Assembly: GCA_001938485.1 (NCBI GenBank)
Contig: MQRK01245180.1
Coordinates: 41,892 to 105,891, forward strand
Direction: 5' to 3'
DNA length: 64,000 nt
Source: Girardia tigrina
Taxonomy: Eukaryota
The translations under genes were made by a program, and so were the position numbers. The notes beneath the pieces are model-generated. The model searched no databases and was not told the origin of the DNA. It saw only the letters and a list, made by a program, of their open reading frames with translations. Positions 1,136 through 57,722 of the stretch are shown here, one piece after another; position 1 is the first letter of the stretch, and every line of letters starts with the position of its first letter.

Positions 1136-1398
1136 AACAAATAAATAGAAATAATTTATATCGCAATAAGCGATAATAAAAAAAATTTAACTACCCGTCG
1201 CAATTTTGTGGTTACCAAATTCAGCATACTCTAAAAATAAGACATTGAATTTAACTAGCAGAAACTATTTCACTATTCGATACTTACTGTGTTATTCTAA
1301 CTCCGCGTGTATTGGTCGAGGAATGATGTGGTCTTTCTTTCATTTGTCTCTGTACTTGACCTTGATTGATTTGAGTGTTCGCTGTACTTAGGCATGTC

Positions 1399-1936
1399 TT
1401 GAGCGTGTTGTATGCTGTGTTTGCTTACGATCCCATCGGATACGGTGTGCTCTATAATCCCTTAATGTTCTCAGACACTCAAGAACCACTAGTTGAAGTT
1501 GCTCTTCAGATTCTATGTGTCACATTGGAAACAATTGAAGATATGAATTTAAAAAGTTCGAAAAAGAAGTTAGATATGTATGCCTCTCTGACGACTGCGT
1601 CTTATGTTTCTAACAATTGCAATTCAATTCATTCAGAAAACGATGTCATGAAGGAGGTTCAGAGTTCAGGGAATCTTTTTGTGAATTATATGTCTCGAAT
1701 CCATAGAGATGAAGATTTTTCATTCATTTTAAAGGGACTTATTCGATTACTTAACAATCCATCGGTACAGACCTATTTCCCGGGTTCCACTAAAAAAAGT
1801 TAATTATCATCAGGAATTGCTTATTTTGCTTTGGAGAATGTGTGATATCAATAGGAGATTTCTCTTTTTCTTATTGAAATCGAGTCATATTTTAGAGATT
1901 TTTGTTCCAATATTATTTCTCTTTAATAATTCGAGA
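1399..1936 (+). pseudogene. HID1: HID1 (Golgi/dense-core-vesicle protein) internal fragment with frameshift
   Basis: AYDPIGYGVLYNPLMFSDTQEPLVEVALQIL...NLFVNYMSRIHRDEDFSFILKGLIRLLNNP..QTYFPGSTKK matches HID1. After one extra A in the run at 1792-1798 the match continues as VNYHQELLILLWRMCDINRRFLFFLLKSSHILEIFVPILFLFNNSR. No flanking HID1 exons seen. Confidence 0.85.
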
Positions 1937-2544
1937 AATATTCCATTAAGAATTTAATTCTAAAATAAAAATCAATAAATAAATTGATTTAGATCATTAA
2001 TGTATATAATTACTTACCGTTTGTGATAAAAAAAGGCGTTGTCGAATATTTTTTGGACATTTGTTATTAACAATAAACTTATTTGAATTTAAGGTGATTT
2101 TCATTTGTTTCTTTACTGCTTTGGTTGACATTGACTTTTTGTTAACGGTTAAGTGGTATTTTATTTACTTATTTTCTGTTTTTACCTATTTTCTTATCGG
2201 TAAGAATAGTTATTCGTTTTTTTCAGAGCGAATAATTATTTTTACACTTACCATTCAAGTTTTTCTCAAAACATTTTGAATCATAATCCTCAAAATCTAT
2301 AAAAGATTGTATCAATTATCACAACAGTGAGTAAAGACCAACATTCCAAAAAAATCCTTACATCGATTCCTAACCAACTCGACAAAGAATAGAGACAAAA
2401 TCTATAACCATTTGAGACACCTGAATACTTTTACGATACATAAGAGAACAATTATTACTAGAGAGCGAGTAAAGTAATGATGCTCAGTTATCTAAACTTT
2501 TTTAATATCCAATTCTACTCTGATTTTTTGTGATCGATACTTAT

Positions 2545-7505: not shown

Positions 7506-7990
7506 TATTAAGAACATTTAGACAAGTCTCATTTGAATTTTTATTGCAATTGCATTTAGAGTCATTACAACTCTCAGAATGTCTTTCATCGTTTGCCATC
7601 GTTCAATTGGTTTTCTTATTTCTGTTTTTATTCATGATTATTCGAACTGTTTTTCTAAGTTATTTTATAAAATATTTAACCTCTAAAAATATTAATTAAA
7701 AAATAATAATTTTTACCATTTCTCAATAAATCCCAAAATAATAAAAATGTCATCAAATTATTAAAGATGCATTAAATTTAAATTTTACTAAAAATTATTA
7801 AACTTAATTTTAATTGTGAAATTAAAAATTTAAACTTATCATATGATTATTTTAATTATGTTCGAATAGTCAATCACCTTAAACTTAATAAAAAATACGA
7901 ATTTCCATCTGGGTGGAGAATCACCATTCTAAATTCAACATACAGCATCCATACATTTACACATTCAAACAATTTAAAAAAATCCTCACA
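7506..7990 (-). mobile_element. Solo LTR (485 bp, subfamily A)
   Basis: Aligns end-to-end with 27138-27622. Termini on + are TATTAAGAACATT...CCTCACA, and it shares the TTCCATCTGGGTGG motif. Confidence 0.75.
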
Positions 7991-8963
7991 ATATGAAAGT
8001 TTTAAAATTGAGTTATGGACATGACTTCCGACGATAGAAACATGTTTAAAGAGGCAAGAAAATACCAATGACCATTACAAGCCTGAACTATAACCAGATG
8101 TCTTCAAAATAATTATAGGGAAATGTGACTTCTTTCTACAGTCATAAAAACTACCACGAAACAAAGACTACAAGAATATTTTTAAGGAATTTATTTCTTT
8201 TAAGAATGAATTTTATTAAAAACTTGTTAACTTTATTATAAACAATTAACTTTAAACAATATACTTCTAAAAGAATGTAATATTCTTTTCCAGAATCATA
8301 TTGAGGAGATAGTTCTACAGAAATTAGTGTCCAGAAGCTCGGCTAATGTCGACATTGAAAAAAATTTCCTTTGAAGAAAAAAAATGTTTTTCATAGAAAT
8401 TAAATTTTTGTCATCGTAATCTCCGGAGAGTAATTATCCAAATATATATGGCCCTAATTCGCAGCATATTTACATTCTGTATTCTTTCATGCCTCCCTCC
8501 GACATCTGTCGAAATAGAACATAATTTCTCTTTTTATAATTAATTATTTATAATCGCGAAGAAATGATTATAATTGATATTACATTTTATGTCTTATTTT
8601 TTTGCTTATGAAAAATAATTTTCCATCACTAAATAATTAATAAAGTTCTTTAGTATTTCGATTCTCGTTGTAGATATACAAGAATTACTTTGAAGATATT
8701 AAATGTCCAAAAAAAATGATAAAAAGAAAAAAATGAAATATTTTACGAGTAATAAAACATTATAAATGCTGAAAAAAATCATTTTTTTATTTTGTTTTAA
8801 TATAATATGAAATAAGAACAAATAAACAAAGACAACTAAAAATAAATAAATAATTTTAAGCAATCTTTTTAAATTTATTAAAAAGGAAATTTGAAAAAAC
8901 AAATTATTAAATTATTTATATATTTACCAAGGAATGTAAAAAATAATGGTAATTTATATTCTT

Positions 8964-19643: not shown

Positions 19644-21760
19644 AATATACCGCAAAAGAATATCGAAATAGATGAAGATGACAAAGCTGATTACAGTTTC
19701 ATGACTTTACCAGTCAGTGAGCGAAAAAAACTTTTCGCAACACCAAACGAAAATGCGGCTAGAACAAGTTAGGAAATTCTATTTATTTAATAATGAAACA
19801 TAAAAATGAATAACTTTTAGTGCCAAGACAAAGATCATTTAGTTTTAGACCTACTCAAAAATTTCAAACAAAAACTCAATCAGCAATTTATCAAAAGGCA
19901 CCTCATGACTTTGGGTGGGGACCAAGTACTGAAAAGATTGAAAGAGCAAGAAACGTAAGGCCCAACCAATCAACCGTTCCGCTACGCTATCAAGAAGCCT
20001 TAGCTGCATCTGTTAGTTAATAAAGTTAAAATTTTATGTTTAATAACTTATTACAACAGCCTCGAATAATGAAAACTAATGCAGAAAAAGTGTCTAGCAG
20101 CTTCTTTTCCGGTCATCAAACCGCGCCTCGAACTACTCAACCGAATCGTCGTTACAGCAGCAGTGCAACTATACCTGGGCAAACTCGAACCAATTTCTCT
20201 TCGTCCACCTTAAATTGCTCAAATGATACATTTCAAAATCAGTACCCGGGACATAAAGTAAAATCACAGAAATACGTTTATCATTGTGGACGAAATAATG
20301 ATGCTAATACTGTTGAACCTTCGATCATTGTTATTCCAAGCCATAGACAACCACAAAATCTTTATGTAAATACCTACGGAACAGGGTATTATCTTGTAAA
20401 TCTGTTTAAGAAAACATATATAATTAAAAGATTCACAATATATTTTTAATAAATTTTCTATTTCAGAAATCAAATGTTGTCACCTGCACAATCGCCAAGA
20501 TATTTCAGGCCGGCCTATCCTGCGTATAATGCAGAAAACTCGGGTATGGACAGTATGTCAATAATATCTGTGCGCAGCGAACCGTATTCAAAGAGACTCG
20601 ACAAAAGTATCGGATATGACAAAGCCGGGGTTGGTTAATTTTCTGAAAAATTTTATAATAAACAATATGCAGAATAGTTAAAAACATAATTCAAAGAAAA
20701 ACAGAAGAACATTCCTAGAATCTTTCGTAAGAACCAAAATTTAAACAAAAAAATATAAGTTTTTTAGACAACAGATGTCTTTACACAACTTCACAAAATT
20801 TTTTTGAGGAAAACTATAGAGATGGTATGATAAAGGGCTAAGTTCATAGAGTTTGGATTTGGTATTTTAATTTTGAAATCTCAGACCATAGGTGATATAT
20901 TTTTAAAGAACGTTTGAGGGAAAAAATGTACACAAAAATTGATAGATCACAACATTAAGGTTATATTGAACAAATTATGAACAAAAAACGAGGAAAGAAA
21001 GGACTAAAGAAAGAAAACATTGAAAAGCACAAATGAATAATCAAAGTATCATATTCTGAAGGATTTAAAGCATTCAAGAACAGTATCTACTAATATACAT
21101 ATATATATATATATATATACAGCTGTGGACAAAAGTCTGTTGACTTTCACATTTTCTACACATTAAGTGCACAAAAAAAAGTTGCCTCCAAACACCACCA
21201 TGAGAAGTGAAAATTATTTAAATGTGTTGAAAGAAAGGCTACAACCCATGATGAATATTCGAGGAACAAAAATATTCATGCATGNNNNNNNNNNNNNNNN
21301 NNNNNNNNNNNNNNNNNNNNNNNNNNNNNCAAGTCAAGGTATCGAAATCCTCTCACCATGGCCAGGAAATAGTCCAGAATTGAATCCTTTGGAAAATTTG
21401 TGGCATATTATGAAGGCCAAGGTTGCTGCCCACCGCCCAACAAGTTTTTAGAATTTGAAGGAAGTCATTGAAGGCGTCTGGTGTACTGAAATTACTCCAG
21501 AATTGTGTCAAAAATTGGTCCACAGTATGCCAAAAAGAATCAATGATGTGCTGAATAATAAGGGTCAANNNNNNNNNNNNNNNNNNNNNNNNNNNNNNNN
21601 NNNNNNNNNNNNNNNNNNNNNNNNNNNNNNNNNNNNNNNNNNNNNNNNNNNNNNNNNNNNNNNNNNNNNNNNNNNNNNNNNNNNNNNNNNNNNNNNNNNN
21701 NNNNNNNNNNNNNNNNNNNNNNNNNNNNNNNNNNNNNNNNNNNNNNNNNNNNNNNNNNNN

Positions 21761-21803
<43 letters not shown>

Positions 21804-24326
21804 TGTCAATGTGGTTTCAATGACAGTCAACGTTCAAAGCTTCCTCTTGAATAAATCGTAAACGATTTGTGGATCGCAAACTAATCTGGTTTATACATTT
21901 GATTTTCACGAGTGTAAAAACTTGTACATTGGCGAGTGAGACTCCTTACTTCAATCAGAAAGACTCAATAAGACAAGAATAACTGTGCCGAAGCTGATCA
22001 ACGAGAGAGAGAAACGTCACTAATGTCCAGTTGAAAAATGCTAAAATGTGTTCGTCGAAAAGATGGAGCTAAACAGACACATCAAAAGTGACCATGCGGT
22101 GTCCACTTCCGCTAATCTTGATCAGATCAACGAGACACAACAACAGCAATTACCATTCCCATGTACACTATGCAAAAAGTCGTACAAATGAAAGGGGTGG
22201 CTGATCAGGTACCTCTACCGGGATCATAAAATTGGAGGAGACAGAAGAAATTAAAGAACTGACAATGATACTTGCGCAAACCAGTTCAACTAATAACCTA
22301 GAAGAAAGACTCGTAGAAAACCTCAACATTCCTGGCAACGGCGGTGGAGGAAGAGATAGGTATTGAAGAAACACATCTGACTTTTAGGATTGCAGATTCA
22401 GATGTCCTTTTTGTGACTTTAGGAAGCCCACGAATACAGCCAAAGTTATCCTGAACCATGGATATACAACCCATGGGTGGTCGTTTCTTACAGGGAAGCC
22501 TAAAAGATCTCGAAGAGCGAAATTATCCGACGGCGTAGGAAACTCTTTAGTTTGGGTGGACCCTATAAAGAGCCTTTAGGCACAATACAAAGAGATGGGA
22601 GGCCCACATTGAGAGAGAAATCGTCATCTCAAAACTCGGATTAGTGAGCATCCACAATCAAATCGATCGATTAATGCTCTTGATCATTAGTTACATTGTA
22701 AAAATGGAATCTCTTCTGTTTCAAAGGATGAGTTTTCTGTTTTACAGAGTGGCTTTGATTCACAATTTGAGTGGCAGTTTTGTGAAATATTATTAATAAG
22801 ATATTACAACCCATTAATAAACATTCAAAATGGACAAAGTAAAACCGTCTAAATTCTTAAAATCTTTAATTAAAATAAAAAAACATTTTTTTTGCCAATT
22901 ATATTCAATAAAATCCTAAATACTTCAATATTTACTGATTAAATTTCCAATTAATTAACATTTGATAATCTTAGAAATTATATTATAATTGTTGATGATG
23001 GCAAACGAAATTCCAAAGCATGTTCAATATTCAATTTCTTAACCAGTTTTTAACAAAATTATTTTCCGAAAATATCAAATTAGCGTTCACAAGACTTAGT
23101 TATACAATGTTAAAAAATAAAAACTTTTGAAAAAGTTCAGAACGAAAAGATTATTTAAAAAATAAAGTCATGTAGAATATAGGAGGTTAGAGTTAAGGTT
23201 AAGCATTTGGTACGAGATTCTTTGATCTATCAGATAAGTTTGTTGTTCGGAAGAAGTTGTAATGGCGGGAAACAATTTTGAGAGTGTAGGGATATCAAGA
23301 AAAGCTTAGATTGAATTCTCGAGGACCTGAGGAATTAATGAAGGGAGACTCACTTAATAACAATTTTTACAGAATTTTAGTTAAGGTGAAAAACTTCTTT
23401 TTCCATAAAAAGGGTCTTTCGAATGATAATCAATTTATATTTTTATAAAAATATATTTTTAGAACATTGTACAGTATAATATTTAAACCCACAATTTTTA
23501 ATAATTTTTTTTAATAATTTGTTAATGGATATTTTTTCAAAAAGAATAAATTTACTAAAACATTTCTTTATTTTTAATATTACTCGAAAAAATGTATTTA
23601 TAATTTATTTAAAATATAAATAAAATTTCAAAAATTTCAAAAACAACTCTTTTTCCTTTTGAGCCATCAATTAAAATATATAATCCCACGACCCTAACTA
23701 AGTAACCTTGTAACATAATTACCGGGTTAATAAGATTCTTCACTGGAATATACATATAAATTCACCGCTTCCTTTTATCTTTTTTTTACCGTCCTCATAA
23801 TATTACAGCTTAACATATCACAATAATTGCAAAAATTTATGGAGAATTTTAAATTAAAAATTTTCTGCTGACTTCCTTTTTGAATTTCAAAAAATAAATT
23901 ATCTATCACTACGTTTATAATATAATATTATATTTATATTTTACGTCATTATAGAATTATCGGATTATTCGCGACGCATCATCTGCTCAAAGAGATTTGC
24001 CGAATCAAATGAGTACACTTCAAATAGGAGAACCGCGTACACGAATCATTGCAAACCCTGCTTCACCAAGCTTTCATTTAAATAGAACATTTTGGGGGCC
24101 GGATTCTCAAACCAGCAGAAACTATGAGGAGCCAGTTCAGTACTTTGCTATGCAATCTAGTCCTATCATGATGGATTCAAGGCCCCACCACAGGAGTGTA
24201 ACAGTTCCAAAGTCTCAATCTTCTATTATTATGAATCCAACTCGTCAAACCAACGATTCGGTTTACAACCAAGTATCATGGCTGAAACAGCATAGAGACA
24301 GTATGACTGGAGTGTCTGACTTTTAG
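19644..24326 (+). CDS. Spliced host gene, last five exons; uncharacterised S/P/Q/R-rich, probably disordered protein ending ...MTGVSDF*
   Basis: Exons 19644-19767, 19821-20011, 20060-20385, 20467-20629 and 23955-24326 are joined by GT-AG introns of 53, 48, 81 and 3325 nt with consistent phases. The spliced frame is open for ~390 codons (NIPQKNIEID...LPVSERKKLF...GVSDF). 5' exons were not identified. Confidence 0.85.
21120..21760 (+). mobile_element. Internally deleted Tc1 element in intron 4 (partly N gap)
   Basis: TA-CAGCTGTGGACAAAAGT terminus, and WPGNSPELNPLENLW plus CQKLVHSMPKRINDVLNNKG transposase C-terminus. Flanked by (TA)n on both sides. Confidence 0.85.
21830..23090 (+). mobile_element. 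5'-truncated Penelope-like element (GIY-YIG plus pLTR) interrupted by a LINE 3' end
   Basis: NLVYTFDFHECKNLYIGE ends at 21936 and resumes at ~22620 as RHLKTRISEH...CEILLIRYYNPLINIQ. Decayed hammerhead at 22988-23028. Confidence 0.8.
21937..22605 (+). mobile_element. 3' end of a LINE with C2H2-like zinc fingers
   Basis: FRCPFCDFRKPTNTAKVILNHGYTTHGW. Homologous to 40705-41317, which is linked upstream to LINE RT motifs. Flanked by ACATTGGCGAG / ACATTG-AGAG. Confidence 0.7.
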
Positions 24327-27137: not shown

Positions 27138-27622
27138 TATTAAGAACATTGAGACAATTCTCATTTGAATTTTTATTACAATCACATTTAGAGTCATTAC
27201 AACTCTGAGAAGATCTTTCATTTTTTGACATCACTTTAAATGGTTTCGTAACGAAACTTTCGTTATTTCTGTCTTTAATCATGATTATTCGAACAATTTT
27301 TCTAAATGTTTTTAAAATACATGATTTTAAAAATATTAATTAAAAATAATAATTTAAATCATTTCTAAATAAAAACACAAAATTATAAAAAATGTTATCA
27401 AATTAAAAAAATGACTTTAATTTAAATCTTATTAAATTCATTTAAATTTAATTCAATGCTTTTCTTTTCTTAATAAAATATTTAAATTAATTTAAATTGT
27501 TAATTTAAAAAATACTAATTTCCATCTGGGTGGGATAATCACTATTCTAATTTCAGCATACTCAAATCAACATACAACATCAATACATTCACACATTCAA
27601 ACAATTTAAAATATTCCACACA
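27138..27622 (-). mobile_element. Solo LTR (485 bp, subfamily A)
   Basis: Paralogue of 7506-7990. Flanks GTGCA / ATGCA (4/5 match) fit a 5-bp TSD. Confidence 0.8.
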
Positions 27623-28794
27623 ATGCATACTGATAATCATTTATATTTCAAGATTGTTCAATTCAAATAAATCAGGATTCAAATTTTATTATCAAAGAGA
27701 ATCAGAACAAATAGAAAACAATATAAAATTTTGAAAAAAATGTATTCAAATCAAAAACTCCACTTCATTCGAAAAATAAAACATTCAAATTCGTAAATGA
27801 AATTAACATTCAATTAACTCCTTCAATTCAAAATTAATTTACACTAAAAAAATTGGTTCGATTCAAAATATATTTATAGTTGATTGAAATTCTCGCAATA
27901 GTGCATCAACAACAAAAAATTTCGTGACTTGTAATTTTAAAAATCACTCAAATTCACAAAACTCGCTTTGATTGGTTAACCAATAAGAGTGAGTCATTTG
28001 AGTTCAATTTTCCTCAGTTATACTGAACATTGGCAAATTCAATTACTGACAATAAAAAAAGACTCGATGAGTCATCGATACAAATAATCATCTAATTACA
28101 ATCGAACTAAGACATCCTTGTTCGGATTTGAAGAAAAAAATCGCCAAATTAAAATAAATTTAACTCAAAAAAGTAGCAAAAAAATGATCAGAGAATTGTA
28201 TTTCAAGATAGATTTTCTGTTCGAGTAAGGAAACGATTTTCAAGATATCAGTAGTAAAAACTAAATGATAATACATAATAATAAATAGCTTAAATTCCAA
28301 AGAATTATTATTATTATTAGTATTATAGTAAGAACGGCTGAGTATGCACCGAGTAATTAATATGGTATATAACTTTAATACAATGGATAACTATAAAAAT
28401 ATAAATTAAATTATATTTTTATAAATAACAACACAAACAACGTTTAGTAACGGAAAGATAGAAAAAATAATTATAATATCAATAAAAAACTGATTTTCAT
28501 GGGAACATAAAGAAACCACGAATGATATTAACTATAAATCGTGAATACACACTGTCGAAACGAATTATTCAAATTACTTATTCTTTTTGGCCAAGATCCC
28601 TTGAAGAAGCAGGAGGATTGCTTGTAACAAAAACAAATAATATATTGTTATTTTTACTTTGATATTCTTTTTGTTAGATTGCTCTAAGAATTTTTGGGAT
28701 TTGATAATTGATGAATTAAAAGTTGTTTTTAAATTTTCCATTTAGTTAATTTTTTTCCCATTCTTTTTATTAGCTTGCTTTCTATATATATATA

Positions 28795-29780
28795 TTGAAA
28801 GAATGAAAGATAAATATCAGACTCGAATATATCGAAAACCAACTGATACCGGTTTGTACAGTTGTCCAAACAGTTTTTCTGACCCAAAATACAATAGGAA
28901 CATGATTAAAGGTTTGGTACATAGAGTCTAGGGTTTAACATCAACCTTTGAGATATTTGATAATGAAGTTGATGAACTTCATAATAGGCTTTCTAAAAAT
29001 GGATTTAATAAAAAAGTATTTAAATAAAATCATAACAGATACTGTTGAATCCATTTATTCAAAATCAAATAATGCATCAAATATAACTTCGGGAAATGAC
29101 ATTGATAATCAAATTACTATCAATCTAACATTACCGTACTCAGAGAGAGCAAAAGAGTTCAAACGATTTTTAGAACATCGAACACCTGTTAGCTTAAAAT
29201 TGAGAGTAATCTTTTTAACTAATAAATGCCGGAACTATTTTTACAACAAATCAAAAGCTCCTTTGTGTATTAAGGCAAATCTAGTTTATCAATTCAAATG
29301 TCACAAGTGCGAAGCCTTGTACATTGGAGAGACAAGTCGTCATCTCCGCACTAGAATTGCTGAACATACTCAATCGAGTAGAAATAGTTCNNNNNNNNNN
29401 CATATTAAAAGATGTAAAGGTAATTTTATGGATTACAATAAAGATTTTAAAGTGATTTTAAATAATTTTGACACAAATTATGAAAGGATTATTGCCGAAG
29501 CATTGTTAATAAAGCATCATAAACCATGCTTAAACGTGCAAGGTGATTCATCTAATCATATTAAAGTTTTTTAAATATTATTAAAATATTTTTTTTAAAG
29601 AAAAAAAAGCATGTTTTTGAGACGTATGATGAGACGTAGTTTTTCAACTATATAATTAGTAATTAATCACTTTATTTCATTGCACTGAAGATGCCGAAAT
29701 GGTGAAACGCGTATGTATTGGGAATAAATTTAATATTCAAAAATGGCCTTTGTTTTCATTATTATTAAAAATGCCATTAT
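28795..29780 (+). mobile_element. 5'-truncated Penelope-like retroelement (RT C-terminus, GIY-YIG endonuclease, pLTR)
   Basis: IYRKPTDTGLY followed by ANLVYQFKCHKCEALYIGETSRHLRTRIAEH...EALLIKHHKPCLNVQ, with a hammerhead downstream. Confidence 0.92.
29681..29717 (+). ncRNA. Minimal type I hammerhead ribozyme
   Basis: TGCA CTGAAGA T GCC-GAAAT-GGT GAAA CGCG TA TGTA: stem I, core, stem II, palindromic stem III and GUA triplet, sitting in a Penelope pLTR. Confidence 0.8.
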
Positions 29781-34783: not shown

Positions 34784-35347
34784 TTGATACTTAATTTTTA
34801 TTTAAATAAAAATATATTTTTAATTTCAATTTAGAAATGTCACTTTAAATTTAAATATTTTTCTAAATATATAATTAAAAAGAAACTTTTTAATGAATAC
34901 TTTGAAACATTCAACTAAATATTATTGATAAAATTATTGCTTTCATTTATTTAGCCGCAATTGTTTTAATGGATTAATAATTCGCAATAATAATTAACTT
35001 TAACAATAAAACAAATTCTTTTGTTTTAATGCTGGTTTATTATTTTTAATAGATATTAATACTGAAGTATTCTCAATCAAAAGTATCTAATTTTTATCGT
35101 CTATGACGATGAATAAATAATTGATGTCAATAATTTATTTTTATTAATATTTTTAATATTGAAAAATTTAATATTACTATTTAAAAGTTTAGGAATTGTA
35201 AAGCGCATTAAACATAACAACATTTTTTAAAATTAATGAACCATTTAAATGTTTTGAAGGATTGGATTCTCTATTAATAAAGTTTTTAAAAGATGTAAGT
35301 ATTTTCTTGTTTTTTTAAAAGAAAGATTTCATCAGCATCTTCACCCT

Positions 35348-35742
35348 TATTAAGAACATTAATTGGGATTTCTTTACATTTATTATTATCACAATTTGAA
35401 TTGCTACTACAACAATTCTCCGTAAAACTTGCGTAGCTCGTCATCGTTCTTGATTGATAATCTTTAATAATATTCTTTAACGTCTTATTATTCGAACAAA
35501 TTTAAATTACATTTCAATTATTACAAAAATAATTTATACTTTAAATTTGAAATAATTTTTATTTATTTTAAGAAAATATTATTTATTTATTAGTTTAATT
35601 TTAAAGTATTTATTTAAATTTTAATACTTGATTAAACAACTCGACGTTTTAAAATATCTAAAATATCAATCTTCCATCTGGGTGGGAGAAACACAATCCT
35701 AAAACAACATACAATAAACACAATTCAAAAATATTCCTCACA
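35348..35742 (-). mobile_element. Solo LTR (395 bp, subfamily B)
   Basis: Near-identical to 57723-58117. Flanks ACCCT / ACCTT (4/5 match). Confidence 0.8.
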
Positions 35743-37389
35743 ACCTTAGTTGAAGTCTTTTTCAGGAATTTATCGTATTGATCCATTGCCATCAAACATG
35801 ACAACGACTCGATTGACTATCATCTTCTACCAAAGAATTCTGTACACCATTATCGCAAAATTATCCGACCACCCAGTATTATTATAAAATATATACAAGT
35901 TTAATTGTTTGAATATAACTAACGATATATAAAAAATCGATAGAAATTCAATTAATAATTATTTACTGTGTTTCATTATTAAAATATATTTTAACTTAAA
36001 TATAATATAGTTCATGGAGGTTATTTTTAAGAAGGGTCGTGAACTAACTTAAACTGAGCGTGGCATCATAACTGGCTTATTGATCAGAGATATATAGTCG
36101 TCTTTACTAGAAACCCCAAAATTAATAAGTTAATTTAAATTTTATACTTCGAATTTTGCTGAATCCAATCAAAAACTTCAATGAAAATATTATTTCAAAA
36201 TGATTAAAAATAAAAAAATAGTATCCAATGATTATACATTTACGCTCCACAATAAAATGGGCCCAGCACAAACACGAAATGTCGGACCTTAAATTTCGAT
36301 ACTACCACCGTCTGGTCTTCGGGGCAACGTGGAGATCGGGTGGAGCAGCTAATATTTACTTATTCGAAAAATCAAAAAGAACAATGTATAATGGAACAGA
36401 CTTTAGTTCTAAACGATTTCACTATGAAAAGACAACCTCAAGTTTTACTATGTTTAATTAACGTAATGAATAAAAGATAAACAAAGAAATAACTAATAAA
36501 TAAATATAATGAATCTAGAAATAGAATAATAGAAAATAAATATCAACATATAAATCATTTTCGTTGATTATTTAGAATTATCGTTTATGTCTTCGAGCAA
36601 CAGAAAGAAAATATTAATCATTTTCAAGATTTAAAAACAGAAACTATTTGGATAAGATAAAATTTTTGAAATATTTTTTAGTATATTATTTATTTATATA
36701 ATAAAATATCAGAATTAATGAACATTCATTTAACGAGATAAATTTGATTATTTTATGTTAAGATAGTTCATTTAAGATAGCATTAATATTTCATTCAAAC
36801 AAAAAAATGTTTTTTGAAGTCTGAAGACTGAAGTAATGTTGTCGTAATATGAGACTTCTAAAATTTAATATAAATATTACAAAATACATTTAAATATTAT
36901 TGCGAAAGAAAGTAAAGCAATAAAAAAAATTAACATAATTTTGATGCATATTTAAGAAAAGATAATTTTTTTTTATTTATTAAAAATTTTATTTATTGTT
37001 TTTCGGGTAACAGAGACAAAATATATTAGAATACAACGGGAAAAATTTGATTAAATAAGTTAATTTTGATTTATTTTTATGAAACATTCTTCAGAATTTT
37101 CTTCTCCTCACTCTTAGTTACAATAACAAAAGATGGAAACGTTTGAACAAACTTCATTGTCAAGAGCTGTTGATACGGCCTTATTGTAGCGTCTGAACCA
37201 ATTTATGTCATACCTAGTTCAAAATATATTTATTCATCAAATGAAGATTTTGGAAAAATATTTTAAAAAATAATTTATAAACGATAAAAAGTTCTGATAA
37301 GAATTTTTAAATATTTTATTTTGAAAATAAATTTATGATTTTGATAAAATTCCAATACAAAATCGGAATGAAAATGATTGCAATAATAT

Positions 37390-37700: not shown

Positions 37701-39089
37701 GGCTTTTGTCAAATGTTCCGAGAATGATTTGTTAAATTTAAAAATCGTGACGATATCATACAACACAAAGAGTTTAATGAGTACTAAATTGATCAGTGCA
37801 ATTGGATTGTGCTCAAATAGAAAATACGGTTTAAATGGTGGAGTTGGTGTAAAAAATTTTTAAATTGTAATTTTAATGAAAATAAAAAGGTCTGTGAGAA
37901 ATTAATGTACAAGAGAATTAATCCACAGGAGAATTACATAAACATTGATTTGGTAAATAAAGGTAACTGAAGAAAGAGACATGAAAAAAGAGACTACAAA
38001 AGAAGACTATTGATAGAAAACCTAAATGCACTTGATTTATAGTTTTTTCATGTATTTTAATATATTTAAATATAGGTTTTTGCATTCATTTGACCAGAAA
38101 CAACAATTGAATTGCCGTTTGCCACATTCAATTTACCTAAAACGTAAATTGATTTAATTATTTAATTATATCTTTTATATGTATATCATCTATATATGAA
38201 AATAAAGTAGGAAACAAATCAGCAATTTTCATTCAGATATGGAAACCTATAATATATTTTTATTATTGTAAATTCAATGTAAACTTTAAATTTTTTCATA
38301 AATGTTTTAATAATTTTATAAATAGAATACCATTTTAAATGTTATACGTTGTTGCTATATATTTGATACTATTTGTCAATCGAAATTGTTCATCAGCCAT
38401 CTGAGAAAGACATAAAACATTCAAATGCAATACAAAAATATTAAAAAATATTTCTCTTACTTATCACTTATTATTTAAATACAAACACTTTATACTTTTA
38501 TTTTATCTTCGTTTTCATTTATCTTGATCTCTTTATTCAGGAATCTTTTTGCATAGTCTCTCTATTCTGGTATCTTTTTCAGAGGTCTCTTTTATCCTCC
38601 TCTTATTTCTTATTTCTTACTCTTATTCTTTCAAGAATCGTATTTAAATGCAGATATATCATTGTTAGTTTAGTCTGAAGAGTACGGTTTATCATTTAAA
38701 ATTAAAAAATTTTGATCAATGTTGCTTTTAAAATGAAAAATTAAATTTTTATTTATAATTAAATTAAAAAGAATTTATTAATTTCATTTAATGATAATGA
38801 ATATAAAATAATAACAAATATTCTTGTACACAATAACCTTTTATCAAAATATTTCAAAAGTAATTAAAAATAGATATTTTACTTTAATGTAAAATAAGTT
38901 TTTAATAAACTTGTCTGGAAGATTATTAATATAAAAACTATTCTTTTTTTTTCGTTAAAAGGAATTTCAAAAATTAGAAGCTAAAACTAAAACGATTTTG
39001 CAAATTTTTATAACACACACACACACATATATATAAAAGTAATAATCCATTAAAGTAATTTTGTTAAATCTTTTTTGAAAATTTATTAT

Positions 39090-41317
39090 TGAGCGGGCCA
39101 CGCAGCTGACTATCAGTATCCTCAGGAAGCTGTTAGAGAAAGTCCTTTATGAAAGTATTTAAAGATAAGCCTTTCCAGACTGTAACGGATAACGTTGTAT
39201 TACAAATAATACTCAGCATTTGCACACAGCGTATTGAGTAAAAGAGTCTATATCGGGTAGAAACCATGAGACAAATACAAAGTTTTCTGATTCTCTCACA
39301 AAGCTTCGAATTCAAGAGTGCGACCTTTCAATTTACGGGCACGCTTTGATAATCTCTGAGAAAGGATCAGTCCGTTCATCTGTTCCGTGATTCTGAAGAT
39401 GTTTGACTGTATAAACGCACATGTTGCAACGGGGAAATGGGTACTGAAACACTCCCCTATCCATTAAATTATCCATCCGAAATTTTAGCAGCACTCTAGG
39501 ACAGTCCTCATTAGTTACATCGATAGACACCAGCGTTCAAGTTCAAAGGTCTAGTACGTCTCTCTATTTCTGCTCTTTGTATTACTATTACCTTGGATTC
39601 GATTATCAATTAATAAATACCGTTGTAGCCAAGCTCAATATAAGAATATTAACACAGATGAAATCTTAAACGAGCTAGAGAAAGCCTTTGATAGTGTCCC
39701 CACAAGTCTTTCTGGAGTAGTTTAAAAAGACTAGAAATAAAAGGAAAATGCTGAAGATCATCAGAGGAATTTAATGGCTCTATTTTGAAGATAAGCTTCA
39801 AAATTAACAAGAGAGTGAGACAAAGTTGTGTTTTAGGTCTGCTTCTATTTGATATTGTGTTCGGCACAGTATTGAAACCTACAGTATCAAACAAACTTTC
39901 TAGAGGATGGAAGATGAAAAAAGGAAGAAAGCTTCCATAAAATTAACAGATTAGCCTATGGAGATGACCTCTGTCTAATGTACAATATATAGTATATATT
40001 ATTTATTTTACAATACAAATTTTTTTTAACTCAAAATTAAAAAATAAGCCATAATGATATTATTATTAAAACCAAGTCTATTTTGAATTTTACTAGTGGA
40101 ACATTAAAACCGATAATAAAGAAATTCCTTGTTTTCAGTTTTTTGTTAAATACAATGAGAAAAAAATCGTTTTTTATAATAATTAAGAGGATGATTTAAT
40201 TAATTTTTTTACATTTTATTGTTAATTTTATTTCTTCGCTTGTTATGGATTACTGCCTTTTCCTTTTTTATTTAAAAAATATAAAATTAGTAAATAATTT
40301 AGTATTTTTTTATTAAAAATAATTAAAACGAATGCGGGTTAATTTATGTTCACTACGCCTGTATATTCTCTGTAGTTTATTATGAATGTAAAATATAAAG
40401 AACTACTCAGAAGAAGATCAACAAACTACAGGCGCTTCACAATCTTCGCACAAAATATATTTTAGATTTGAAGAAAATAGAAAAGGTCCGCATGAACACT
40501 AGGACATTCAACAAATTATACCAATGGACATTATTGTAAGTAGATGTCTTACATTCCATTATAAGAATGAAGAGAAAGAAGATTTCTAGTACATCAAATG
40601 AATCTGGACAGCGACAATACCAATGGGGACGAAAATTAGTGGGAAAAAGAAGTCATCCACCTCCGAATGTCTTGGATTGTATATACAGTGACTTATTGTA
40701 GATTGTGAGACGTATATAAACTCCCTAATCATATTAAACAGGGTTCATCGAACAAGAACAGATGTACCAAAAGGATAGAAAAAAAACTATTACAGTGTCC
40801 AAAATAATGATGCTACAAGAAGCTCTATAGACATTTCAAGAAAGAAGATGAAGCAGATGAATACTGAAATAGACGTATAACTTTTCAAATTTAATTGTCG
40901 AAATCTCTTCAAATCATTCTGAGAAAATCGACCAGATGAGCAACACAATTGGGAAAGTCGACCAAAATACCAAAAATATTCCAGAAACTCAAAATCATTT
41001 AGCAACGGGGGTGGAAGAAAAGATCACAGCCGAAGTAACACATTTGTTTTTTGGACCACATACTCATCTTCGATGCGTGAATTCAGATGTCCCTTTCGCA
41101 GCCACATAAAGTCCACATATGTAGATAAAGACATGCAAAACCATGGATTTCAATCCATGGGTGGTCACCTCTTACATGGGAGGGCTATAAGATCCCGGAG
41201 ACCAAAATTATCCAACCCCGTATCGGAGCCTATCATGGGCTGCTTGATACGTTTTCAGTTTAGATACACATTTTAAAGGATCTCGAGGCTCAATACCCTT
41301 GAAAGAGATTGGAGGCA
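39090..41317 (+). mobile_element. Decayed LINE (RT plus C-terminal zinc-finger region)
   Basis: LEKAFDSVP (~39675), VRQSCVLGLLLF (~39815), LAYGDDL (~39952) and FRCPF..H (41082). AT-rich interruption at ~39985-40340. Confidence 0.75.
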
Positions 41318-41760
41318 CATATTAGAGAAATAAGTAGTCTTCTTGAAACCCATATTATTGAGCATTCACAATCGAGTCAATCAAGAAGGGTTCTTGCTCA
41401 TTAGTTAGATTGTAAAAATAGAATCCCTTTAATTTCAAAATGTGAGTTTTCTTGATTCACACTATGAACGGTAGTTTTGTGAATCATTATTAATAAGACA
41501 CTACAACCCCTTAACAAACATTCCAAATGGAAAAAGTAAAGCCCCTTCAAATCTTAAATTAAATTAAAAAAAGATTTACCATTAATATCCAATGATACAA
41601 ATGAATCAAATACAAATTTTCTTTATCTTCAATTAAATCTAATTTTTAATTTTTTAAAATTCAAGTGATAACTGCCGATGATGGAGAATAAAACTTCGAA
41701 AGATGTTCAATAATCAATTTTTTAAAAAAAGCTTTAACAAAATATTTTTCCTCTATAACA
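41318..41760 (+). mobile_element. Penelope GIY-YIG 3' half plus pLTR, fused directly to the LINE 3' end
   Basis: HIREISSLLETHIIEHSQSS...CESLLIRHYNPLTNI aligns with 22606-23060. Decayed hammerhead ACTG CCGATGA T GGAG..CTTC GAAA GATG TT CAAT at 41671-41711. Confidence 0.8.
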
Positions 41761-42849: not shown

Positions 42850-44005
42850 TTTAATATTTGAGTCTTGTGATCGCCTACTTGCTTTCCACTTTAAGTAATT
42901 TGTGTCATCCCTACACATCACAAACTCAGTGCGTTTCTGCAATTTATCTTTGATGAGTAATTTCAGTTCTTCTTCATGCCCAATTAGCCATCGCTGGTTA
43001 CTTCGTGTCCGTTTAGATCTTCTGCTTGCCCTCCAGACCATTCCTTGAAGGGTATGATTCAAGAACTTCCAGTTTACGATACCTGAAATAGTGATGTGAA
43101 GTAGAGTCTGTACAATAATCTCTTCATGCCTTATTACTGCCTTACTGTCAGGCATCCTAGATTTACGTGGTTTCCTGTCAGTTGAAATCATTATTGAACG
43201 CTTACCTTCATTCCGTTTGAGAGCTGTTGTGACCACTAAGTCATGATCGGATCCACAATCCAATCCCGGATAGCTGCAAGCATCTAACTATCTTATTCGT
43301 TCGATGTCGCTCCGTGAGAAAGATGTCCGACAGCTCCCGCCTTTATTGTACCTGGATGAGTCCTACTCATTCTCTGGATAAGTTTCTATCTAAAAAAGTG
43401 TTCTTCACACGTAATCCACAGGTAGATGCCATCTCTATCAGCAGCTGTCCGTTTTCTGATAGAGTATTTTTATATTAATCAATTTTATATTTATTTTATT
43501 TATTATATTATTATTTTATTATTATTATTTTATTATATTTATTAATTTTATATTTATATTGCTAGCTACTCCACTAGCAAAAGAACCTACAATATTAATA
43601 TTGTCCTCGTTTTCCTTCAATCTTCAATTGAAGTTGCCTCCAATCAGCAGCTCCATTATATTGTTATTTGCATACATTTCTTCTCTCTCCACTATCTCTT
43701 GAAGTTCATGAAAGAAATTAAGTTATTCCTCATGTGTATACCCGCAGCCCATTGAGGTGTACACTCTAGTGATTGTAATTAAACGCCTAAAATATCTATA
43801 AACAAAAACTTGATCATTGATCGGCATGAAGTCAAATTTAGAATGATCAAATTCTTTGATCATTAGTGCAACACCTTTCTCTTTACGTATCCCGGTGGTA
43901 CTGCCACTCTTGAGGATTTTCCACTCGTTGAATTGTGTGATGTCACTCCTCCTCAAGCACGTTTCGGTCAGAATACACAGCTCCGTTCGCGTTTTTTCGA
44001 GAGCC
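42850..44005 (-). mobile_element. LINE apurinic-like endonuclease region (RTE-like), decayed
   Basis: EKGVALMI, IGGNFN, ENGQLLIE and DCGSDHDLVV APE motifs. Confidence 0.8.
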
Positions 44006-44172
44006 CCTAAAATACAAATAATTTATGGGGAAAGAGTTGCATGTGAAGCTTCATTAAACAGGACCCACAATACTAAAATAAATATTCAAGCGACAATCTC
44101 AACCAATTTATTAAAAGTATTTAATTAAAAAGCGATTGAATAATTTGATTACATAACCATTACTTGCAAATA

Positions 44173-45794
44173 CTACCTCCATTCAAATGTATTCGGACAC
44201 GTGAAATAATTCTTATTAAAAAATTAAATTATAAATAATATGTACTTATTTGTATTATAGATGAATTAATTTGATATTTTACGATAATATAAATACAATT
44301 CTAAAATAATTTGAAGAAATCAAATAAAAAAGTAAACTAATAAAAATTTTATTCTCATTTAAAAATTTGTTCTCATATTCAAAAGAATTCGGACAATTAA
44401 TAAAAATTATAATATAAATGTAGGCAATGAATTATTTTAAATTCAATATGGATTATTAGTAAAAACACATGTAGTTATTAATGTTTAAATATTTCAGTCG
44501 ATAAAATTTTCGTTATTTTTAAAATATGGTTCGTGGAAAAAAGATGGATACGGAAATGCGTAAGAAAATATTTGCCATGCATGTTAAAGGAAAATCAGTA
44601 ATGGAAATTTCAAAAACTTTAGAGATAAGTGTGTCGACGGTGTTCGATAACATTAAAAAAGCTAAATGCCGTCAGAATAACTCATCGTCAAAGAAATCTA
44701 GACGACCAAAGTTGACTTCCGCTACTGATAACCGGTGTTTGAAGAGGTTAATTCCTCAACGAAGAAATCAACGAGAAATGGAGTATGCAAACAGGCATTT
44801 CTTCAACTCCGTCCACTTGTCTACGTCGAATACATGAATTAAATTATTCATTCTACAAGGTAAGATTTTCTTAATGAAATATAAGCATTGCGTAACACTT
44901 TTTTCTTAACACAAACCGTTTCTGTCACCTATTCAAAAGAAAAAGAGACTTGAATGGGCTCTTAATCATAGTAAATGGAGCCAAAATGATTGGAATAAAG
45001 TTATTTTTTCAAACGAAATTTGTTTTGAATTGTCTATGGGTAAAAATGGAAAAGACTTAGTACCAAGTCATTATTATCGGTCTGTTTAAATCGAACTCTG
45101 AAATTTCCAGAAAGTGTAATGATTTGGAGTTTTATGGCAAGCAAATGACTTTGTAGTCTTCACTTTATAGAGGGCACAATGAACTCTACAAAGTATACCG
45201 AGATATTAAGGGAAAGTCTCATCCCATCTATTGCGCAATATTTTGACAACGGAAATTTAATTTTTCAACAAGATAGAGCATCTTGTCATACTTCTAAATT
45301 TACAAAAACTTGGATGATGAAAAATAATGTTTTTCTAGACATGACCTTCAGAAAGCCCAGAGTCAAGTCCCATAGAGAATGTTTGGGCATTTATGAAAAA
45401 GGAATTACGAAAAAAACATCCTAAAAATAAAATTGATTTGAAGAATAAAATTTTAGCAATATGGAATAGTTTTCCCATTGATAAATGTCAGGATTTATAC
45501 AATTCAATGAATAGAAGAATGGAAGATGTCATAAAAGCAAAGGGCGATGTTACAAGATTTTAAATAGCAAGTGTCCGAATTCTTTTGAATTTGAGAACAA
45601 ATTTTTAAATGAGAATAAAATTTTTATTAGTTAACTTTTTTATTTGATTTCTTCAAATTATTTTAGAATTGTATTTAGATTATCGTAAAATATCAAATTA
45701 ATTCATCTATAATACAAATAAGTACATGTTATTTATAATTTAAATTTTTAATAAGAATTATTTTACGTGTCCGATTACATATGAATTCGGGTAG
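44173..45794 (+). mobile_element. Full-length but defective Minos-like Tc1 (IR/DR) element with intron
   Basis: TA-flanked ~223-bp TIRs with inner and outer ATTC...TTCGGACA direct repeats. Transposase 44526-45563 reads MVRGKK...YSFYK|KPFLSPIQKKKRLEWA...LHFIEGTMN...FQQDRASCHT...AKGDVTRF*. GTAAGA donor at 44860. Frameshifts and FSNE (D to N). Confidence 0.92.
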
Positions 45795-45796
45795 TA

Positions 45797-46658
45797 TATG
45801 TTATGCCGAATTTGTGTTATGGCCGAATTCACGAATTAGGCAAAATATTTTGCGGAGTTCGTGAATTCGGCAACAGTTTGCTGAAATAGTGTAATTGCCG
45901 AATTTATGAACTGGTCAATTTTTTCCGATTTCACTATTTATATGAAAAATTTTCATTTTAAAATGAAAATTTCTCAATTTATAATAAGAGATTATGCATT
46001 TAATTTTAAAAAATATCAATTTAATATGACAAAAATTAATTTAATATGAAAAAATATCAATTTTATTATGAAAAAAATATCAATTTAATATGAAAATTAT
46101 GTTTTTAATACGAAAAAATATCAAATTATCATTAAAATTTATCAATTTAATATGAAAAATAAATTAAATATGAAATAAATCTTAATTTATTATGCAAAAT
46201 AGATTCCAAATGTAAAGTTTTATTTATAGTTTTTAAACTTCTTCCTTGGTGGCTAGCTGAATTACAAAAGTTTGTATTTTAATAGCATTTTTCATATTAA
46301 ATTGATATGTTTTTCGTATTAAAAACATAATTTTCTTATTAAATCGATATTTTTTCATATTAAATTGACTGTTTTTTCATATTGAATCGATATTTTTCAT
46401 ATTAAATCGATAATTTTTCATATTACATTGATTTTTTTCATATTAAGTACAAAAATTTTCATATTAGATACATATTTTTTCATATTAAATAATAATATCA
46501 ATTTATAATTGAATTAAAAAAAATTTTAAAAAATTGCCGAGTTCGTGAATTCGGTAAGTCGGTTGCCTAATTCGTGAAAATGGTTGCCAAATACATGAAT
46601 TCGGCAAAAAGTTACCGAATTCACGAATTTGGCAATTACACAAATTCGGCATAACATA
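45797..46658. mobile_element. Foldback-type MITE with modular repeats
   Basis: TA-flanked perfect TIR TATGTTATGCCGAATTTGTG. Outer GCCGAATTCACGAA modules and inner ~20-bp AATTTAATATGAAAAAATATC modules are mirrored on both arms. Confidence 0.88.
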
Positions 46659-50425: not shown

Positions 50426-51760
50426 ATAAGATAATTATTTTTGCGAATATTTAGAACGTGTTAAGTATTTTTAACAAAGTGGAAGAGACACTTGTTTGGA
50501 CATTTAATAATACTATACGTGAATTAATTACATGATGTTTCTGAGCATACATCCATGGGCGTTTATTTGTATTTATATTTTTGTTTCCAATCAGCTTCAC
50601 CAAAATTGAAAATAACATTATTAAGAAGGCTGTGTACTGCTTTTATAATTCTCTAAACATTGAAAATTTATCAAAAAAGCTTTTTTGCTAATATCAAGAT
50701 TTTGCTAAAAGAATCAATATGAATTATTGAAAAATTTAAAAGGTGTAAAACTTATAGAATTTATTAATCATTATTTTTTTCTGTAAATATATTTATTATA
50801 TTGTTTTTGATAACAGAGCATGCACTGCACTTGCGTGGCCGTTGCGAGCTGATGTTGGGAGGTTGACTGCTGGTCGAGGGGAGCAAAACCGTCTATGAGT
50901 ATATCTGGTTCCCTGGACCCCACTCGAGTCACTCTGACGAAGAAAGAAGTTCGGCATCTGTCTGTGATTGAGAGGGGTCTTGATGATCTGCACGTGCTGA
51001 AGAACTTTCTTTGCGGGATACTTGTTCAACAAATTACAATGACGGGTTCCAATAACATTTAGAAATCGGTTTTGGAATTGTGAATTTGTAAACAATCACA
51101 AATAGAAATAATTTCTCTCAGAGTTGAAAGATTCTCTCTCATAATTTATTTGAAAATTTTGATTAAAAAATACCAACAGATCGAAAGACGAAATGATTAA
51201 TTTTTCGCGCATCATCACAAATATCACAATGATTTTATTGCTTTGAACAAACAATTTTGTAAATTTTTTACATTTACTATGATTGAGATAGGTAAATATG
51301 CAATCAATTAAGTAATAAAATCTCTTGAAAATGTTTTTGAAATTTGAAAATGTTTAACAGAGAAGAAGAGTGTGAAGCTTGAATATTAATTTTTTGATCA
51401 AGTACTCTCTCTCAGTAATTTTTAAATCGATTACACAGAATTTGAAAATCATTTTTCCGATTTTCTTTTTACATTTTAAATTATGTTCATTAAATGTTCA
51501 CAAATAAAAAATATTAATTATTTAATAGAAAAATATTTAATTGTTTATAAGGAAAGAACACATCATTTAAGTCTTATTGAAATTTTTACTATTTGTAAAA
51601 CGCTACTTTCGTATGCTTTGTGTGTAGATGTTATACTCTTTCTTTTGCTTTTGTACAAAGTCTTGGTATGATTAGTTGCTCTTTGTACATAGGGTTTCCT
51701 GTGTATGTGGAGTGTGATCTATTACTATACATTTTACTTGTAAAACGGTTACTTTTGAAG

Positions 51761-53067: not shown

Positions 53068-53157
53068 AATCGACTATGCTCTTTGATCCGTTGACAGAGA
53101 TGACGAGATGTCTCTCCAATGTATGTGGAGTTACACCCATTACATGTATATTTAAAT
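53068..53157 (-). mobile_element. Penelope GIY-YIG fragment
   Basis: FKYTCNGCNSTYIGETSRHLCQRIKEHSR. Confidence 0.85.
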
Positions 53158-56409: not shown

Positions 56410-57722
56410 GTCAGGCTGTGAGGAGTCGTGACCCTGCAGTCGTGTGGTCGATTGCATCGCAATGATCCAGGGTTTCTAATCCTAGTGAGGGGTGTTGTGA
56501 AGCCGATTCGCCGGTGGAGGTTAGGCATGGATCCCGACATTGGGGGAGTACCTATTGAAGCCATTAGCGTCTCAGTCCTCCTAAAAAGCTTCAGGTTTAA
56601 TATCTTTATAGAATGAGAGGTTCACTCGATTGTTAAATTGAACAAATTTATTTTTTATTTCTCAAGAGAAACAAAATATTAAATGAAAGTAATTTACTGT
56701 GTCTGGATCATGACAAGTCTTTCAATGACGTTTTTTGAAAATATCTTGTTTGAAAATTACTTTTTTAATTGTTTTTTAAAAGCGGAATCTGACAAATTTT
56801 GATTTATGTTACTTTTGAAAAAATAAAAAATTTTTACAATATTTAGTCTTTATTTGTTTACATATGAACACACGAAGAACTTTGAGAGTGAAAAAGTAGA
56901 AACATTTTGATGAAGTCTGTATGAATAGTTGGACATACCAAACATTCTGTACAATCTTCTAGTCATCGGAGAATGTCTTCATAACCAAACTCAATTAAAA
57001 AACAAAATAATGTCCATAAAAAACTTTTTATAGTCATTAGGCAGCAGATAATCTTAATTTTTGTCATTATAAAATTATATGTCATACTGATTAATGTATA
57101 ATAATTCTGAAAGTATCTTAAAATAACATTCATTGCAGATATATAAAATTCTTTTAGCGAACAGAAAATTTCCTTTTAGTTAGAAATCCCAACAGGAAAT
57201 GTTTAATTCTTTAAAATCGCACATCATTGATGTTGGAATTTTTAATAAATATACTCTGTTTTATGATGGTCAGAGTTTTCAGCTTGGCGACATTTTTAGA
57301 AAACATCCTCATCTTGCAAAGAAGAACAGAAAAAACATTAAATAAAAGGGAATGGGAATAATGGATTATTTTATTTTTTTGATTTCTTCTGAAATACTCA
57401 TTATAACGAAAGAAAATTTATTCGATAAAAAATATTTTGTTAAATATATTGTTTATGAGAGAAATATTTCACAAAAATTATTCTATGTTAATTTGAATTT
57501 CTAATTTGAAATCTTTGAATTTTATTAATATAGTACAATTATATATTTTTCGAAAAAGTTTTCGAGGAACATTTTTTTCTTTTTATACATAAATATTATG
57601 AAATATAAATACGAATTCTTAATTTATTATTTATGTAATTTGGGAATTTCAAAATTAATTTTATCGCATTACTTTTTTTTAATTTTTTTACAAAATCTTT
57701 TAATTGTAATCAGTTTTCATTT

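Follow-up and report, generated by a model that had tools for sequence, protein, structure and literature searches.

Several described retrotransposons bear on the arrangement reported here, a LINE joined to the nuclease gene of a Penelope element. Tx1L and Tx2L of Xenopus resemble it in that a LINE with an AP endonuclease has another mobile element as its target, reportedly a DNA-transposon-like repeat in the case of Tx1L. The Tx1 clade has two ORFs, with a CCHC-type finger at the C-terminus of ORF2, and R1 elements carry a gag-like ORF1. A further likeness is offered by the R1 clade (R1Bm, TRAS, SART) and Keno, whose AP-endonuclease elements are specific for conserved multicopy sequences, although their targets are host rDNA, telomeric repeats and U2 genes, whereas here the codons of the Penelope nuclease would take that place. 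In Kojima and Jurka (PMC4640811), transposons are counted among the known LINE targets and Tx1 among the target-specific clades, most target-specific LINEs being early-branching elements with a restriction-like endonuclease, Tx1 or R1; the targeting of other transposons by LINEs is thus known in general (PMC4640811 and PMC8869645). According to PMC6007223, priming in R1Bm and R2Ol is helped when the RNA 3' end pairs with the target, and known RTEs have a loose insertion signature and microsatellite-like repeat ends. For Penelope, PMC3846280 and PMC8557442 give as features a pseudo-LTR holding a hammerhead and the first ORF codons, an optional 30-40-bp tail and an inverted 5' piece, and describe such inverted 5' pieces along with mobilisation of cargo in trans; in Pen3a of Adineta vaga, pseudo-LTR pieces, both direct and inverted, frame foreign sequence with an NRPS gene (PMC3846280). 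Neither a LINE targeting Penelope nor a target-specific RTE was found in the accessible text of the open-licence PubMed Central and bioRxiv literature (including bioRxiv 10.64898/2026.07.22.740005); Repbase or subscription papers could hold one.

Here we describe two loci at which LINE sequence meets the GIY-YIG gene of Penelope at the same nucleotide. We consider it rather probable that a sequence-specific RTE-like LINE targets the Penelope nuclease motif and that Penelope secondarily copied the interrupted element, and we infer the site specificity from two loci of one window.

Composition of the window and search for related proteins

The window, that is, the whole stretch of 64,000 nucleotides analysed (Girardia tigrina contig MQRK01245180.1, positions 41,892 to 105,891), is AT-rich (27.5% GC) and eukaryotic, with numerous decayed transposons and one HID1-like gene (1375-1954, plus strand), whose frame seems to shift by one base in a run of A near 1790, the sign of either an assembly error or a pseudogene. 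The argument is built on this window and on related proteins, with two junction loci (A and B) in decayed sequence. Penelope sequence makes up about 4% of the window, and all four pieces of the LINE group (A, B and the pieces E and F described below) sit in or against it; a weak match to a Penelope C-terminus (51343-51465, minus strand, HMM score 12.1) is possibly a further fragment. The window also holds two repeat pairs, 35347-35743 with 57722-58118 (94% identical) and 7506-7992 with 27138-27624 (74%), and AT-rich tandem repeats, imperfect and about 105-125 bp in length (45937-46490), within a short element with inverted ends.

Of 268 candidates in the search for parental proteins, two were hits, each matching a different half of the query; their clusters contain P0017, a Penelope ORF of 836 aa, and P0022, an intact LINE ORF of 1188 aa. 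No protein spanning the junction or starting at it was present among the hits (2/268, 28, 3/5 and 6/1493), which is a weak test, and the YIG motif was intact in all three short Penelope protein hits. Of the 28 hits, P0035, P0037 and P0041 proved to be unrelated repeat proteins and were dropped. The scan of prokaryotic genomes for relatives yielded none among 63 candidates; one of 23 prokaryotic candidates gave a 29-residue match on a bacterial contig, free of LINE context, which we attribute to chance. Only generic RT and endonuclease clusters were returned by the Atlas search.

A Penelope element split by a truncated LINE

Locus A is a Penelope copy (about 20779-23100, all parts on the plus strand) whose GIY-YIG motif is split by a LINE and which has a decayed hammerhead and the first ORF codons at its end. 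It begins with the decayed end of the RT domain and the linker (20779-21087), with 62/102 residues identical to aa 298-401 of P0003 (tblastn and frameshift-aware alignment). Between (TA)n runs there follows an unrelated insertion with N gaps (approximately 21120-21760), on both sides of which the Penelope ORF is collinear; its translation resembles the C-terminus of a transposase and we take it to be Tc1/mariner-like. The 5' half of the GIY-YIG domain (21802-21936, 28/47 residues identical to aa 405-451 of P0003) ends with the residues YIGE, encoded by TAC ATT GGC GAG at 21925-21936. Within these codons lies the 5' copy of a target-site duplication of 11 bp (21926-21936), which has one mismatch against the empty site of the Penelope copies C and D; its 3' copy (22606-22615) has lost one base, the sequence resuming as ACATTG-AGAG. 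The insert is thereby flanked by the 11-mer ACATTGGAGAG, with one different change in each copy. The insert itself (21937-22605, 669 bp) is a 5'-truncated LINE with a short 3' UTR, corresponding to aa ~960-1182 of P0022 and belonging to the same subfamily (78% identical to the intact protein over aa 964-1182; 156/199 residues). It carries three C2H2 fingers (about 22018-22095, 22156-22227 and 22397-22480); the Pfam finger matches in the insert (E about 6e-5), which cover the first two, fall just below the curated cut-offs. Target-primed reverse transcription commonly yields a LINE that, as here, starts in the middle of its ORF directly after the duplication.

Behind the insert, the 3' half of the GIY-YIG domain (22606-22873) has 63/86 residues identical to aa 451-536 of P0003 and contains an in-frame TAG at 22688, which is also found in locus B. 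A decayed minimal hammerhead motif (22988-23028, predicted cut after 23024), recognised by motif scan and by comparison with copy C, overlaps the end of the pseudo-LTR (23020-23100), where the ORF start (aa 6-26 of P0017) is followed by a tail extension of about 30 bp in the layout given in PMC3846280. Both halves of this element match consecutive parts of the GIY-YIG domain of copy C (28939-29571) and of intact P0003, and no inverted Penelope head was found at the Penelope of locus A or at copy C. The first-pass annotation had described the YIGE codons at 21925-21936, a zinc-finger LINE of about 670 bp, the resumption at 22606 and a duplication of about 11 bp, all of which we recover; its GIY-YIG junction stands, but it had missed the Penelope sequence that extends upstream to about 20779, past the Tc1-like insertion.

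A longer LINE copy framed by Penelope sequence

Locus B (39052-41750) contains a longer and more diverged copy of the LINE, and Penelope coding sequence is absent upstream of it. The LINE part (39093-41318, plus strand) comprises aa 579-1188 and the 3' UTR of an earlier-branching subfamily, with RT motifs; it is heavily decayed (52-61% identical to P0022) and harbours two nested inserts. One of them, piece E (approximately 39160-39596, minus strand), is the 3' end of a more distant, P0054-like zinc-finger LINE lying antisense, with no YIG site after it; a partial duplication of RT residues surrounds it. The other is an AT-rich insert (39981-40356, strand not assigned) that interrupts the RT and appears as a gap between tblastn matches. 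We considered piece E as a third 3' end and dropped it, its family, C-terminus and UTR being different. The LINE 3' ends at A and B are alike, AAAGAGAT(G/T)GGAGGCnC, and at B the junction 41318|41319 falls on the same base as at A (21936/22605-22606). The earlier claims of a junction at an identical nucleotide in both loci, and of a diverged, longer copy around 41300-41345 with RT motifs upstream, the same 3' end and the same Penelope codon, are therefore borne out.

Downstream of the junction (41319-41750, plus strand) lie the 3' half of the GIY-YIG domain, with a TAG at 41402, the UTR, a decayed hammerhead (41671-41711) and the pseudo-LTR end. This tail is identical to that of A in 179/229 coding and 148/200 non-coding bases. 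At the other side, the truncation point of the LINE is adjoined by an inverted copy of the Penelope 3' terminus (39052-39092, minus strand; 36/41 bases identical to 41707-41748). After the sequence itself and locus A, this 41-bp head is the best match to the terminus among 1596 sequence windows (score 52, the next being 42). Both the lack of a Penelope 5' half and this inverted terminus had escaped the first reading of B, which was right about the shared junction.

Locus B is thus framed as one Penelope unit, and the inner end of its inverted head is at most one base away from where the hammerhead is predicted to cut; the interrupted Penelope was therefore probably recopied by Penelope machinery, with the LINE as cargo. 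The composite at B is a Penelope carrying a LINE and not a LINE carrying a Penelope. The position of the head also suggests that an RNA 5' end made by the ribozyme templates the inverted piece of Penelope insertions. The arrangement could also result from a later deletion between an ordinary inverted pseudo-LTR and a point within the LINE, but such a deletion would have had to end at the cut site by chance. In its framing by direct and inverted Penelope pieces the cargo of B recalls Pen3a; it differs in being a LINE fragment, which had entered Penelope beforehand, and in having an inverted piece of just 41 bp.

The target site and its uninterrupted copies

The host elements belong to the Penelope type with a C-terminal endonuclease: RT and GIY-YIG follow each other in a single ORF, A and C are collinear with P0003 and P0017 (RVT_1), and the pseudo-LTR with hammerhead and first ORF codons, the tail and the inverted 5' piece are all present, the hammerhead being identified by motif alone. 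Copy C (28776-29740, plus strand) is an uninterrupted Penelope of another family, with a Pfam GIY-YIG match (28939-29571, E 3.9e-7), an empty target at 29321-29331 and a canonical-looking hammerhead at 29681-29717. Copy D (53070-53156, minus strand) is an uninterrupted YIG fragment of a third family, also with an empty target, and both carry the perfect 11-mer. The Penelope tail with its hammerhead, as proposed at first, is real, the hammerhead being decayed in A and B and canonical-looking in C; none of the seven Rfam matches in 20000-43000 is a hammerhead, and folding of the hammerheads gave no significant result (z 0.36, -0.27 and 1.18).

Of the four YIG sites in the window two are occupied (A and B) and two are empty (C and D). 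With four such sites, a random insertion would hit the exact junction base with a chance of about 3e-5, so that either common descent or specificity is required. Both intact 3' ends of the lineage in the window (2/2) lie at this one base, which is what a target-specific element would give if the insertions are independent; their independence is supported, not proven. Against specificity, C and D are empty despite perfect sites, both occupied sites belong to one Penelope family, and B has neither the 5' Penelope half nor a target duplication.

The codons of the YIGET-RHL block are conserved at the DNA level in three Penelope families (29320-29346, plus; 53097-53123, minus; 22606-22630, plus). 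Between C and D, DNA is identical at 8/8 positions inside the block and 2/6 outside, and the tail of A agrees with C at 4/4 positions inside and 9/15 outside, hinting at a cis-acting signal inside the Penelope nuclease gene; such a block would make a durable target. The proposed microhomology between the LINE tip and the target likewise holds: the tip of B shares a 7-mer with the target (9/11 bases), and such a 7-mer is rare in the background (0.25% of the 17-mers of the window and 34/3085 LINE 17-mers), the test having been picked after the match was seen. This likeness suggests a long association or RNA-DNA pairing at priming.

The LINE and its relatives

P0022 comprises an AP endonuclease, an RT and, C-terminally, three C2H2 fingers (Pfam Exo_endo_phos, RVT_1 and C2H2, with no zf-RVT match), and its best PDB match is LINE-1 ORF2 (E 7e-32). 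AP endonuclease and RT in one ORF, 5' truncation and target-site duplication together identify an AP-endonuclease non-LTR retrotransposon, which by its RT and thumb motifs and its single-ORF layout we take to be RTE-like. It appears to share with BovB and RTE-1 a single long ORF starting from the endonuclease, a short 3' UTR (about 70 bases) and the RT and thumb motifs; it differs from known RTEs in ending with a target-like tip at a fixed base, and the microsatellite-like repeats usual at RTE 3' ends are absent from both tips. Judged by their size, the contigs of 3889-3925 bases that hold the 1188-aa ORF leave less than 360 bases beyond it, which would give no room for the gag-like ORF1 of R1. 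From Tx1L it is distinguished by its apparently single ORF and three C2H2 fingers and by its target, here a coding motif of a retrotransposon nuclease. The comparison with Tx1 made in the first-pass annotation holds as an analogy, that of a LINE targeting another repeat, but in its domain layout the element departs from Tx1: P0022 has C2H2 fingers and no zf-RVT, and no ORF1 was seen.

Sister subfamilies of P0022 were found at about 40-70% identity, among them P0042, P0063, P0065 and P0066 (50-65%). In two proteins from a distant subfamily the reading frame runs on into 3' UTR sequence matching that of A. Across subfamilies that are 43-70% identical, an invariant VGGLSG end and shared 3' UTR sequence occur (P0004, P0039, P0042, P0063, P0077 and P0082), probably an RNA recognition signal overlapping the end of the ORF.

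To the LINE group of the window, recognised earlier from A and B, two pieces have to be added, the piece E already mentioned and piece F (42850-44022, minus strand), the AP-endonuclease part of a related LINE (aa 14-369, 183/355 residues identical to P0022) that has lost its 3' part. No YIG junction occurs at either, which counts against specificity, though E is of another family and F without a 3' end. F is not the missing 5' part of B, as its orientation and position are wrong and aa 370-578 are absent. The 5' end of F is adjoined by piece G (44024-44125, plus strand), the C-terminus of yet another Penelope family, inverted relative to F (P0055; tblastn 61% over 33 aa, E 7e-7 in pairwise comparison; HMM score 13.6). 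This nearly 5'-complete endonuclease piece set against an inverted Penelope C-terminus has the same layout as the head of B; it may represent another inverted head or else an insertion without specificity. A Tc1/mariner-like copy with inverted repeats of 232 bp (44167-45800) starts just after piece G.

Comparison of the two insertions

The LINE parts of A and B were compared at sites that separate P0022 from its sister P0042. In A, the P0022 residue is kept at 62/80 subfamily-specific sites and at 91/116 conserved sites, the same rate, so that A is a decayed P0022-type copy. B keeps the specific residues at 36/78 sites and the conserved ones at 130/202 (Fisher p 0.007); the sister residue appears in it 13 times where 3.5 are expected (P 8e-5), or 12 times for an expected 3.7 with P0063 as sister. 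These values come from an alignment restricted by hand to four blocks of a badly decayed copy, with expectations from an assumed substitution and decay model. Of the 32 polarised sites covered in A, 27 are derived, 0 ancestral and 5 other; for the 41 covered in B the counts are 12, 8 and 21. Only one non-P0022 residue is common to both in 153 aligned LINE sites. In the tree from the long alignment, B falls outside A plus P0022 with 96% support, and the AU test rejects a clade of A and B there (p 0.039), while the short overlap gives no rejection (p 0.16); since long-branch effects are possible, we give the site-wise count more weight than the tree. The codon-position test of the LINE part was not used, the overlap being too short and decayed and its frames straddling frameshifts. 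As the subfamilies differ, the LINE lineage evolved between the two events. The LINE of A starts at aa ~960 right after the duplication and therefore cannot be the parent of B, nor is it easily derived from it.

In 70 codons the tails of A and B differ 13, 17 and 14 times at the three codon positions, and this even divergence fits decay after insertion. Relative to the two nearest intact Penelope relatives, they share the TAG and one further non-reference residue (2/77 sites, with 1.2-1.5 expected by parallel decay). We reject the TAG as proof of common descent, 0.17-0.2 shared stops being expected by chance; together with the single Penelope family it is unremarkable, yet leans towards common descent. 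The tail of A keeps 49/64 conserved residues against 91/116 in its LINE and is no more decayed than the latter, and the LINE of A is less decayed than that of B (p 0.011). Homology between the loci is confined to the elements (22396-23067 with 41081-41751), and among 146 random pairs 32 and 96 score as high as the flanks do. Taken from sequence comparison, the two insertions look independent.

Alternative explanations

A single chance insertion of a non-specific LINE, the composite then being spread by Penelope enzymes in trans, is unlikely in our estimation, though it draws on several of the features just described: the TAG and the Penelope family common to both loci, the Penelope-mobilised look of B, tails whose decay does not differ significantly (49/64 kept in A, 41/60 in B, p 0.32), the several deletions at both loci and the mostly P0022-like state of the last 55 residues of B at polarised sites. 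Locus A would then have lost part of its length by deletion and had its LINE part replaced by gene conversion from a younger subfamily, or B would be an A-like composite recombined with an older LINE. Such a course needs a deletion ending about one base from the duplication in addition to the conversion or recombination, and it is opposed by the near lack of common changes (1/153 LINE sites, 2/77 tail sites) and by the significantly lesser decay of the LINE of A. That the two loci are an old segmental duplication of one insertion, or an assembly artefact, is the remotest of the readings. They lie 19 kb apart on the same strand, their identity is similar along the shared part (72-78%) and the assembly has gaps; yet the homology ends at the element ends, the flanks score as random, LINE lengths and subfamilies differ, and a divergence of 22-28% is too high for collapsed haplotypes. 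The first-pass annotation had named such a duplication as part of what would overturn its reading, and the unrelated flanks, the element-bounded homology and the differing subfamilies contradict it.

The first-pass annotation had also raised a LINE that adopted a Penelope tail. A long-lived chimeric LINE, whose master copy has a 3' UTR made up of the Penelope tail with its hammerhead and moves by LINE machinery, would account for the identical junction and tail at both loci, for tail divergence without codon bias and for the lack of upstream Penelope coding sequence at B. We hold it to be improbable: A lies within a full Penelope, with a target duplication and no second tail, and B starts with an inverted Penelope terminus, a signature of Penelope integration. 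Moreover, for a LINE lineage change of about 5% of residues, a drifting tail is predicted to keep 43-65% of its conserved residues at omega 0.1-0.3, and the 49/64 kept in A (P <=0.03; 0.16 at omega 0.5) are too many for a passenger drifting between subfamilies, unless selection on the LINE is weak. We give still less credence to recurrent template switching, in which the Penelope RT would leave Penelope RNA at the ATTGGAG microhomology and continue on the 3' end of the LINE RNA. The resemblance of the LINE tip to the target speaks for it, B would be explained in one step, and template jumps have been proposed for Penelope (PMC3846280), but A requires two switches and an 11-bp duplication, and a homology-guided switch would remove one of the shared words, of which the tip and target copies are both present. 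A sequence-specific LINE inserting into the Penelope nuclease motif, as first suggested, remains the favoured reading, on account of the differing subfamilies, the truncation and duplication at A and the unrelated flanks.

Proposed mechanism and implications

Under the favoured reading, an RTE-like LINE with one ORF would use target-primed reverse transcription to enter the YIGE codons at T|ACATTGGAGAG, with duplication of 11 bp. The site would be chosen by the endonuclease or by zinc-finger recognition, and the LINE RNA may pair through its 3' end with the nicked target. An older subfamily would first have entered one Penelope copy, and Penelope enzymes would then have recopied the interrupted copy in trans, giving B, whose head is inverted Penelope sequence and whose 5' end falls within the LINE; A would stem from the later entry of a younger subfamily into a different copy from that Penelope family. 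With the first half of the nuclease cut off from its remainder by the LINE, the host Penelope copy would lose its own endonuclease on LINE entry. We regard as evenly poised the further proposition that this LINE lineage is a parasite of Penelope, which recognises the conserved YIGETxRHL codons, destroys the endonuclease and is then spread as cargo, the Penelope RT making use of the intact pseudo-LTR and hammerhead downstream.

If true, target specificity would occur in a LINE clade with no known case in the literature searched, aimed at the active-site motif of a nuclease, and a specific element outside the three known groups would mean another independent origin of specificity. It would also provide an intact AP-endonuclease and zinc-finger protein with a defined 11-bp target, which is testable and relevant to LINE-based insertion tools. 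Locus B, with an inverted head that starts at the predicted hammerhead cut, is a clue to the mechanism of Penelope. Finally, one retrotransposon would hold another in check, disabling the nuclease of the very element that carries it.
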